Origin: Escherichia coli | Lineage (GTDB): Bacteria > Pseudomonadota > Gammaproteobacteria > Enterobacterales > Enterobacteriaceae | NCBI RefSeq assembly: GCF_003334315.1 | Contig: NZ_QOWR01000045.1 | Strand: one strand, 5' to 3' | Length of the DNA stretch: 41,110 nucleotides | Part shown: positions 15,480-15,877 of the stretch, piece after piece | Position numbering within the stretch: position 1 is the stretch's first letter | How the letters are laid out: every line of letters begins with the position of its first letter | The notes under the pieces: generated by a model | Told to the model about the DNA's origin: nothing | Database searches by the model: none | Seen by the model: the letters and a program-made list of their open reading frames with translations, nothing else | Made by a program: the position numbers and the translations under genes

Positions 15480-15776
15480 ATGCAGTTGGAAGAAGTCGCT
15501 AAAGCGCTGAAAGAGCTAGGTCACCCGACCCGTTTGTTCATATTTAAACATCTTGTCAAAGCCGGGGAACAAGGGTTGCCGGTCGGTGAGTTGCAAAAGC
15601 AGCTTGGGATACCTGGCTCCACACTCAGCCACCATATATCAGCACTGGTATCGGTAGGACTGGTCAAACAAAACCGTGAGAGTCGGACGCTGATGTGTGT
15701 TTCGCAATACGCAATGCTGGAAGCGATAATTGAATTCTTACGCGAGGAGTGCTGCGTAAATAGCAAAATTGCCTGA
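15480..15776 (+). CDS. ArsR/SmtB-family winged-helix transcriptional regulator
   Basis: ATG at 15480 preceded by GAGGGG gives MQLEEVAKALKELGHPTRLFIFKHL...LGIPGSTLSHHISALVSVGLVKQNRESR, a typical ArsR/SmtB HTH, ending EECCVNSKIA. The track ORF starts 63 nt upstream without an obvious RBS. Confidence 0.65.
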   Translation: MQLEEVAKALKELGHPTRLFIFKHLVKAGEQGLPVGELQKQLGIPGSTLSHHISALVSVGLVKQNRESRTLMCVSQYAMLEAIIEFLREECCVNSKIA

Positions 15777-15877
15777 TGCGCTACGCTCTACATATTTCAT
15801 GCCATATATTGAATTTGCACGGTTTTGTAGGTCGGATAAGACGCGTTAGCGTCGCATCCGACATAAACAAAGCGCAC
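15763..15877. repeat. BIME/REP-type palindromic repeat element
   Basis: GCAAAATTGCCTGATGCGCTACGC...TTGAATTTGCA...GTAGGTCGGATAAGACGCGTTAGCGTCGCATCCGACA...AAAGCGCAC, nearly identical in its ends to the element at about 27028-27148. Confidence 0.6.

Follow-up and report, generated by a model that had tools for sequence, protein, structure and literature searches.

A BIME-1 repeat that probably replaced the C-terminus of an ArsR-family regulator in Escherichia coli

On the E. coli chromosome, the gene for an ArsR/SmtB-family regulator ends inside a small repeat element, a BIME-1/RIP unit located between this gene and the convergent arsC. We consider it very likely that the repeat replaced the C-terminus of the regulator, that the truncation was tolerated, and that an 8-bp deletion in the left REP occurred later. 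The sequence-only reading of the 41,110-nt stretch of DNA analyzed here (the window) had offered two possibilities: a repeat that truncated or replaced the native C-terminus, or one that simply abuts the gene. We compared the C-terminus with those of BIME-less orthologs, and the result favors replacement over mere abutment: alleles without the BIME at the same site continue with TDGEGATKNK before their stop, yielding a protein of 106 aa.

The regulator locus and its repeat element

The features of the locus, together with a second copy of the repeat used for comparison, are as follows.

14372-15385, minus strand: ArsP_1-family permease (Pfam PF03773, E 1.8e-52), divergent from the regulator
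15480-15776, plus strand: ArsR/SmtB-family regulator CDS from the ORF list, 98 aa, ending ...REECCVNSKIA-stop
15763-15768, plus strand: GCAAAA microhomology zone, in which native AGCAAAAC (BIME-less alleles) equals the BIME-1 left flank CGCAAAATT
15769-15776, plus strand: first unambiguous BIME bases, completing ATT (Ile97), GCC (Ala98) and TGA (stop)
15771-15791, plus strand: left z1-type inverted REP (GCCTGATGCGCTACGC / TCTAC), with CTAC at 15788-15791 and a 3' stem arm lacking 8 bp
15792-15826, no strand assigned: L linker with conserved core ATATATTGAATTTGCA, matching the conserved linker of 33 RIP copies
15827-15862, no strand assigned: right y-type REP (GTAGGTCGGATAAGACGCGTTAGCGTCGCATCCGAC), with GTAG at 15827-15830 and an intact, stable hairpin
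15863-15893, no strand assigned: BIME-1 right flank motif ATAAACAAAGCGCACTTTACCAACTATCGG (consensus of 33 copies, ATGAACAAAGCGCACTTTGTCAGCAATCTGA)
15894-15909, no strand assigned: degenerate remnant of the native GC hairpin (AGTGGATATCGCCGCT here, GGGGGCATATCCCCC in BIME-less alleles, GGGGGGGATATCGCCGC in K-12)
15910-16335, minus strand: arsC (glutaredoxin-dependent arsenate reductase) from the ORF list and RefSeq, convergent with the regulator
about 27012-27165, no strand assigned: comparison copy, a complete BIME-1/RIP with both flanks (27012-27035 and 27135-27165)

The identical regulator protein is annotated in RefSeq as WP_001175589.1. It scored 61.9 bits against NCBIfam NF033788 (cutoff 55), which places it in the ArsR/SmtB class, and Pfam domains PF12840/PF01022 are present in its homologs. 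This generic model was the only one above its cutoff, and similarity was too low for an equivalog assignment. The divergent permease is the likely target of the regulator, and the same pairing is also found on plasmids, in Citrobacter and in other Escherichia. The nearest NCBIfam models of the permease (Cu/Zn efflux SO_0444 and SaoE) scored far under their cutoffs. The permease carries a TPFCSCS motif and a Cys-rich loop (CCAP, SCCSP, TCCST); the pair adjoins arsRBC, and mobile plasmid copies of it lie beside Tn3-family and IS1 elements. Together with the two-Cys regulator, these motifs and this context suggest that the pair may constitute an efflux module for organoarsenical or other thiophilic compounds. 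After the repeat element, the minus-strand order is arsC-arsB-arsR. A 22-nt imperfect palindrome occurs twice in the divergent permease/regulator promoter region, at 15397-15418 (ATATTTCTAGAATAATCGAAAT) and 15434-15455 (ATATTTCTGGTATTATCGAAAT), 37 nt apart; both copies are candidate operator sites. A second, paralogous pair of ArsP_1 permease and 98-aa regulator is present at another locus in Escherichia sp. GCA_024733345.1 (1397-3892 of its stretch), flanked by an Oxidored_FMN gene and a DUF2776 gene. Its regulator is 86% identical, has the tail VNNGKY-stop, and is followed by a repeat-free spacer of 42 nt with its own hairpin.

In the Gilson/Bachellier scheme (Ton-Hoang et al. 2012, PMC3333891), BIME-1 is a single-copy unit made of a z1 inverted REP, an L linker and a y REP. 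For a definition that does not depend on the window, we gathered z-REP copies from E. albertii, Citrobacter and Pseudocitrobacter; 133 were usable, of which 34 were RIP-type, and a BIME-1 consensus was derived from 33-34 independent copies. In the window, as in the 33-copy consensus and in the copy near 27028, inverse z1 and y REPs are bounded by CTAC/GTAG. The long linker aligns to the conserved ...TGCAATATATTGAATTTGCA... with column conservation of 0.8-0.9, and a single unit, not a tandem array, lies between the regulator and arsC. The y REP matched its consensus and formed a hairpin in both MFE and centroid folds. The element is not fully extragenic: its first 6-14 nt overlap the CDS and give the stop codon. 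Judged by its sequence parts, the identification as BIME-1 is unaffected by this overlap.

As the sequence-only reading had noticed, the final codons of the regulator lie within a BIME whose ends are nearly identical to those of the copy near 27028. A 24-nt block, GCAAAATTGCCTGATGCGCTACGC, is exact at 15763-15786 and 27028-27051, and the two copies align with 85% mean column identity. The 16-nt core GCCTGATGCGCTACGC has two exact occurrences; in a search allowing up to 3 mismatches, the chance expectation was 0.35 matches. The comparison copy is situated downstream of an ORF ending at 26957 and upstream of a minus-strand ORF at 27201-28700; part of it also falls within a minus-strand ORF (26775-27128) of the mechanical ORF list.

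In the consensus, the left flank is (GAGACTGA)TGACAAACGCAAAATT and the right flank is ATGAACAAAGCGCACTTTGTCAGCAATCTGA(AG), ending ...CACTTTGTCAGCAATCTGA. The complete left flank reads GAGACTGATGACAAACGCAAAATT, of which the window keeps only the part from GCAAAATT on; the outer part, GACTGATGACAAAC, is absent, and the right flank is whole. Because GCAAAATT is contained in the 33-34-copy consensus, it truly belongs to the element. The extent first given for the element, 15763-15877, therefore holds on its left side, where the flank is part of the repeat, and falls short on its right, where the flank reaches about 15893. The flanks (left GAGACTGATGACAAACGCAAAATT, right ...GCGCACTTTGTCAGCAATCTGAAG) form an imperfect inverted-repeat pair (TGACAAA... 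/ ...TTTGTCA), giving the ~155-nt BIME-1 unit a MITE-like outline.

The L linker of BIME-1 usually carries an IHF site (Ton-Hoang et al. 2012, PMC3333891), and the similar linker in the window may contain a putative one. An Rfam scan of the element returned only sub-threshold REP-related matches (naRNA4 and ES036), so no curated RNA family applies to it. The ES036/CssrF sRNA match covers the full model length on the BIME-1 linker (15784-15826, minus strand; 28.2 bits against a threshold of 37.6), and the ES036 family may itself be derived from BIME-1. The match to naRNA4, a REP-derived nucleoid-associated RNA, lies on the y REP (15830-15868) on both strands. The BIME alleles of O169:H41, 2012C-4502 and WP4-S17 have a further 11-bp deletion (TATATTGAATT) in the conserved linker core, the reported place of the IHF site; this additional loss in some alleles indicates that the element is decaying at the locus. 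A 122-aa variant of the regulator from a Logan assembly reads ...CCVNSKLPDALRSTYFMPYIEFARFCRSDKTR; a one-base change in an A-run shifts the frame, which stays open through the BIME and adds about 25 residues. Either a sequencing error or a genuine frameshift allele could account for this variant.

Alleles without the repeat and the native C-terminus

We searched 5,426 complete E. coli genomes with a 521-nt query that extends from the gene through the repeat into the beginning of arsC; matches with at least 80% coverage, counted as the gene with the BIME, numbered about 2,008. In about 214 of the 5,426 genomes, for example in strains 4973 and SBF22, this site carries the gene but no BIME. The BIME-less regulator has 106 aa (...CCVNSKTDGEGATKNK, then stop) and is identical through Lys96, after which it continues with TDGEGATKNK-stop. 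Its stop codon runs directly into a GC hairpin, GGGGGCATATCCCCC, which is followed by the stop of arsC. Nucleotide homology between the two kinds of allele stops at 15768/15769 and resumes at the hairpin. Plasmid and transposon homologs with ~84% nucleotide identity end in SKTDVAE[HP]AGKNG-stop. Since these homologs and the BIME-less alleles both carry it, the long tail is ancestral for the lineage, and comparison of the sequences indicates that the BIME allele has lost ten native codons and the native stop. Among the listed homologs, the ...SKIA ending was confined to E. coli-type sequences whose identity to the query was 86% or more; no BIME-free ortholog sharing the same C-terminus and stop position was found among them. 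In Citrobacter werkmanii, which keeps the order permease-regulator-arsC, a 98-aa regulator ends in INSPKI-stop and is followed by a short, repeat-free spacer. In strain KOr019, at 550-895 of its stretch, an annotated transposase gene of IS421 (IS4-like) starts 68 nt downstream of the 106-aa BIME-less regulator, in the usual place of arsC.

Distances between coding sequences interleave the BIME and BIME-less classes (EC1 is nearer to 4973 than to the window). Because they fail to separate the classes cleanly, the locus has been shuffled by recombination, and polarity within E. coli thus rests on the tails of outgroup sequences. It is conceivable that the BIME allele is the older one at the E. 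coli locus and that the 106-aa form was restored by recombination with an incoming homolog. This mixing of the classes would agree with such a history, as would the minority status of the BIME-less form (about 214 genomes, compared with about 2,008 that have the gene and the BIME and about 1,960 carriers of a remnant) and the mobile permease-regulator copies beside Tn3-family and IS elements. However, the hairpin GGGGGCATATCCCCC of BIME-less alleles has a degenerate homolog in K-12 and the window, surviving on the right-hand side of the BIME, a pattern that is the signature of an empty site and not of foreign DNA. In addition, the known plasmid copies differ from the chromosomal BIME-less allele in both tail sequence and downstream DNA. 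We therefore regard restoration as unlikely; even if the BIME allele were older, Ile-Ala-stop would still be repeat-derived relative to the gene family.

Returning to replacement by the repeat, the regulator ends with the codons AGC AAA ATT GCC TGA (15762-15776), and the corresponding native codons in BIME-less alleles are AGC AAA ACA GAT, the first differing base being 15769. The zone 15763-15768 is identical in the native gene and the BIME flank, so the junction lies somewhere within it. AGC AAA (Ser95-Lys96) is native too, so only ATT GCC TGA is unambiguously repeat-derived. The earlier attribution of the last codons to the repeat accordingly stands for Ile-Ala-stop and fails for AGC AAA. 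GCCTGA is the 5' end of a z-type REP, in which TGA is built in at GCC/TGATG.

Acquisition of BIME-1 would have removed the last ten native codons of the regulator and its stop (...K-TDGEGATKNK-stop), and with these gone the reading frame would enter the repeat by two codons (Ile-Ala) and stop at the TGA of the z-REP. The left junction falls in a 6-7-nt microhomology (GCAAAA) common to native codons 95-97 and the left flank of the BIME. The BIME lacks its outer left flank, whereas its whole right flank is present, directly next to the old terminator hairpin; this asymmetry suggests a two-step history. In the first step, the BIME would have inserted just past the native stop, ahead of the hairpin; in the second, a short deletion between two GCAAAA repeats would have joined codon 96 to the repeat. 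We infer this order as the most economical, and a single microhomology-mediated event is equally possible. No intermediate allele, with the 106-aa gene followed by a complete BIME, was seen with a tail-only query, which matched 152 genomes, all annotated as the regulator, and whose sensitivity is limited by the 28-nt megablast word. Likewise, no match in a spread listing of the BIME-less query retained the long tail and had lost the hairpin. For a flank of 24 nt and a tail of ~40 nt, we roughly estimate the probability of a chance 6-nt microhomology at ~0.2, which is not very improbable.

The hairpin remnant at 15894-15909 is still terminator-like on the plus strand in a terminator scan. In the BIME-less allele, read on the arsC strand, a T-rich run follows the hairpin (TTATTTGTTCTT); it is the reverse complement of AAG AAC AAA TAA. 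From this arrangement, the ancestral tail codons of the regulator appear to have doubled as the U-tract of the arsRBC terminator. Because the BIME replaced the T-rich run, arsRBC transcripts may now end differently, and the y REP hairpin, which is stable, could serve each of the two convergent transcripts as a 3' barrier.

The truncation is probably tolerated, since the segment past the invariant [E/D]ECC motif appears to be a hypervariable, dispensable tail. An [E/D/N/Q/A]CC motif is present near the C-terminus in 116 of the 120 listed homologs. The tail after CC ranges from 2 to 30 aa with a mode of 6, and has 6 aa or fewer in 45 of 96 homologs (E. coli KIA-/SKTD-type sequences left out); in the window it is VNSKIA, 6 aa. 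Among seven chromosomal alleles (4 BIME and 3 BIME-less), 0-15 of the first 288 nt differ, with 0 amino-acid changes. The presence of nucleotide differences without amino-acid differences points to purifying selection on both forms, and the shortened protein would thus still be under constraint. From these comparisons the change of tail looks neutral.

The best match of the regulator among solved structures was AfArsR (6J05, E 3e-10), whose CC pair at chain positions 95-96 (ligands Cys95-Cys96) aligns with that of the regulator. AfArsR and SpArsR are type-2 ArsR repressors with a C-terminal Cys pair (PMC11868830). The CC pair is common to the regulator and AfArsR, whereas the third cysteine (Cys102) is found only in AfArsR: no Cys follows CC in the 98-aa or the 106-aa form, and the regulator does not have the type-2 three-Cys site (Cys95, Cys96, Cys102). 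Its two-Cys arrangement resembles that of SpArsR, which is MAs(III)-selective.

These comparisons bear on the alternative that the BIME-derived tail is not neutral, and was selected for altered effector sensing or dimer stability. The cut is only four residues past the CC pair equivalent to the metalloid ligands of AfArsR, residue 98 falls at the position of AfArsR Cys102, and the truncated allele is about ten times commoner than the long one. Nevertheless, neither tail has a third cysteine, family tails are hypervariable in length and sequence, many being as short or shorter, and frequency alone can mirror hitch-hiking or population structure. Selection for the new tail is thus improbable.

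Stub alleles, the left REP and the stop codon

A third class of allele, about 1,960 genomes in the 80-90% identity band with no gene annotated, carries a stub of the regulator. In K-12, O157:H7 and S115, the permease and most of the regulator are absent; the last ~70 nt of the gene remain in decayed form and are joined to the BIME at the identical junction (...AATAGCAAAATCGCCTGATG...). Since the stubs keep the junction as in intact-gene alleles, the fusion was formed once and predates the deletion of the permease and regulator. In K-12 MG1655, the unannotated stub is located at about 3650690-3650880 of NC_000913.3, on the minus strand in the arsC-yhiS intergenic region, and a matching unannotated stub lies in the arsC-yhiS region of O157:H7, at 2990-3200 of its stretch. 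The K-12/O157 stub is ~18% diverged from the intact gene without indels, which is high for within-species variation. The K-12 repeat was read directly from the sequence; the RefSeq annotation has no repeat feature in the examined stretch, including the region downstream of arsC. We also considered whether the K-12 stub is part of the repeat itself and rejected this, the left flank of the BIME-1 consensus being unrelated to the stub.

Eight base pairs (CTGTCAGG) of the 3' arm of the left REP are absent in all 7 intact-gene alleles inspected. The left REP is intact in the copy near 27028 and in all 3 stub alleles (K-12, O157 and S115), and S115 has the exact sequence predicted for the precursor of the deletion. 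When a synthetic query combining an intact gene with an intact left REP was run against the 5,426 genomes, the best full-length match had 94.0% identity; this value equals the 8-nt gap, indicating that the combination is absent from the collection. The predicted fold of the left REP in the window reaches only -2.3 kcal/mol (z 0.33, no better than shuffled sequence), whereas the K-12 version, with both arms present, folds at -12.9 kcal/mol. Past the regulator stop, no stable hairpin begins until the y REP, 51 nt downstream. Owing to the 8-bp deletion, the stop codon is thus no longer buried in a REP hairpin.

When a REP hairpin lies less than 16 nt away from a stop codon, ribosomes are reported to stall and translation to fall (Liang, Rudd, Deutscher 2015; summarized in PMC12306157). 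The original fusion, as we reconstruct it, likewise had its stop in the REP stem. In contrast to that system, the hairpin is destroyed in every intact-gene allele sampled, and in the window no stable stem-loop starts within 15 nt of the stop; REP-dependent down-regulation of translation is therefore probably inoperative there, as judged from predicted folds. As REPs near a stop are reported to stall ribosomes, the 8-bp deletion may have been selected as a compensatory change, lineages having either destroyed the hairpin and kept the gene or lost the gene with the REP intact. We regard this idea as doubtful: the deletion looks like a single event, so the association between gene and REP carries no statistical weight. 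If true, it would be a natural example of selection on the proximity of a REP to a stop codon.

Precedents and comparison with known systems

To see how often the GCC TGA of a z-REP ends a gene, we scanned 127 z-REP copies with enough flanking sequence. At least 80 open codons were found in 10 cases in the TGA frame and in 10 cases in a control frame; because these counts are similar, we kept just the three longest ORFs, once each had a family match. In 3 of 127 copies (about 2%), from Pseudocitrobacter and Citrobacter, the GCC TGA ends a real gene as Ala-stop. The three genes are unrelated, and the use of a REP start as final codon and stop is recurrent.

Pseudocitrobacter faecalis, minus strand: bcp, covering NF006960 profile positions 1-155 of 156
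about 10305-11369 of its stretch: Ldh_2-family dehydrogenase, with Ala-stop from the z-REP GCC TGA
about 8760-9777 of its stretch: PfkB-family kinase, with Ala-stop from the z-REP GCC TGA

That the BIME merely abuts the regulator gene, with ...SKIA-stop native and the overlap of a few bases coincidental, is very hard to credit: a native last codon and stop can coincide with the start of a REP, as in Pseudocitrobacter bcp (...KERA-stop in GCC TGA), and six residues past CC is the modal tail length of the family, but BIME-less alleles and outgroup homologs all go on past K96 with a homologous TD...KN tail, nucleotide homology breaks at the boundary given above and resumes only at the hairpin, and the SKIA end is confined, among the listed homologs, to E. 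coli-type sequences.

Filled, empty and decayed alleles within one species thus show a REP/BIME rewriting the end of a gene, and replacement can be harmless in this case: the z-REP has a built-in TGA that can be in frame, and the tail of the regulator is dispensable. This history accounts for the two annotated lengths of the regulator, 98 aa in the majority of strains and 106 aa in some others, and for the unannotated K-12 stub beside arsC. The link between survival of the gene and loss of the REP hairpin provides a testable handle on REPs near stop codons. The current understanding of REPs and of ArsR proteins is unchanged by this case.

With E. coli BIME-1/RIP, the element in the window has in common the same parts in the same order, a linker of ~35 nt, the right flank and the single copy. 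It departs from the standard form as follows: 8 bp are gone from the left REP stem, coding sequence stands in place of the outer left flank, and part of the element lies within a CDS, whereas REPs seldom overlap coding regions (PMC12306157).

Small repeats joined to ORF 3' ends have been documented (Delihas 2011, PMC3184786), in a review covering enterobacterial repeats (Delihas 2007), pneumococcal BOX/RUP/SPRITE (Croucher 2011) and Bordetella BRE (Hot 2011). The fusion of the regulator to the BIME is a further example of this type of event, well documented and a matter of ordinary micro-evolution. In those cases, as here, a non-autonomous repeat gives the terminal codons and the stop, and filled and empty sites occur among relatives. 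Here, however, the protein was shortened (from a 14-aa to a 6-aa tail) instead of extended, and the number of carriers of each state can be determined in 5,426 genomes belonging to a single species.
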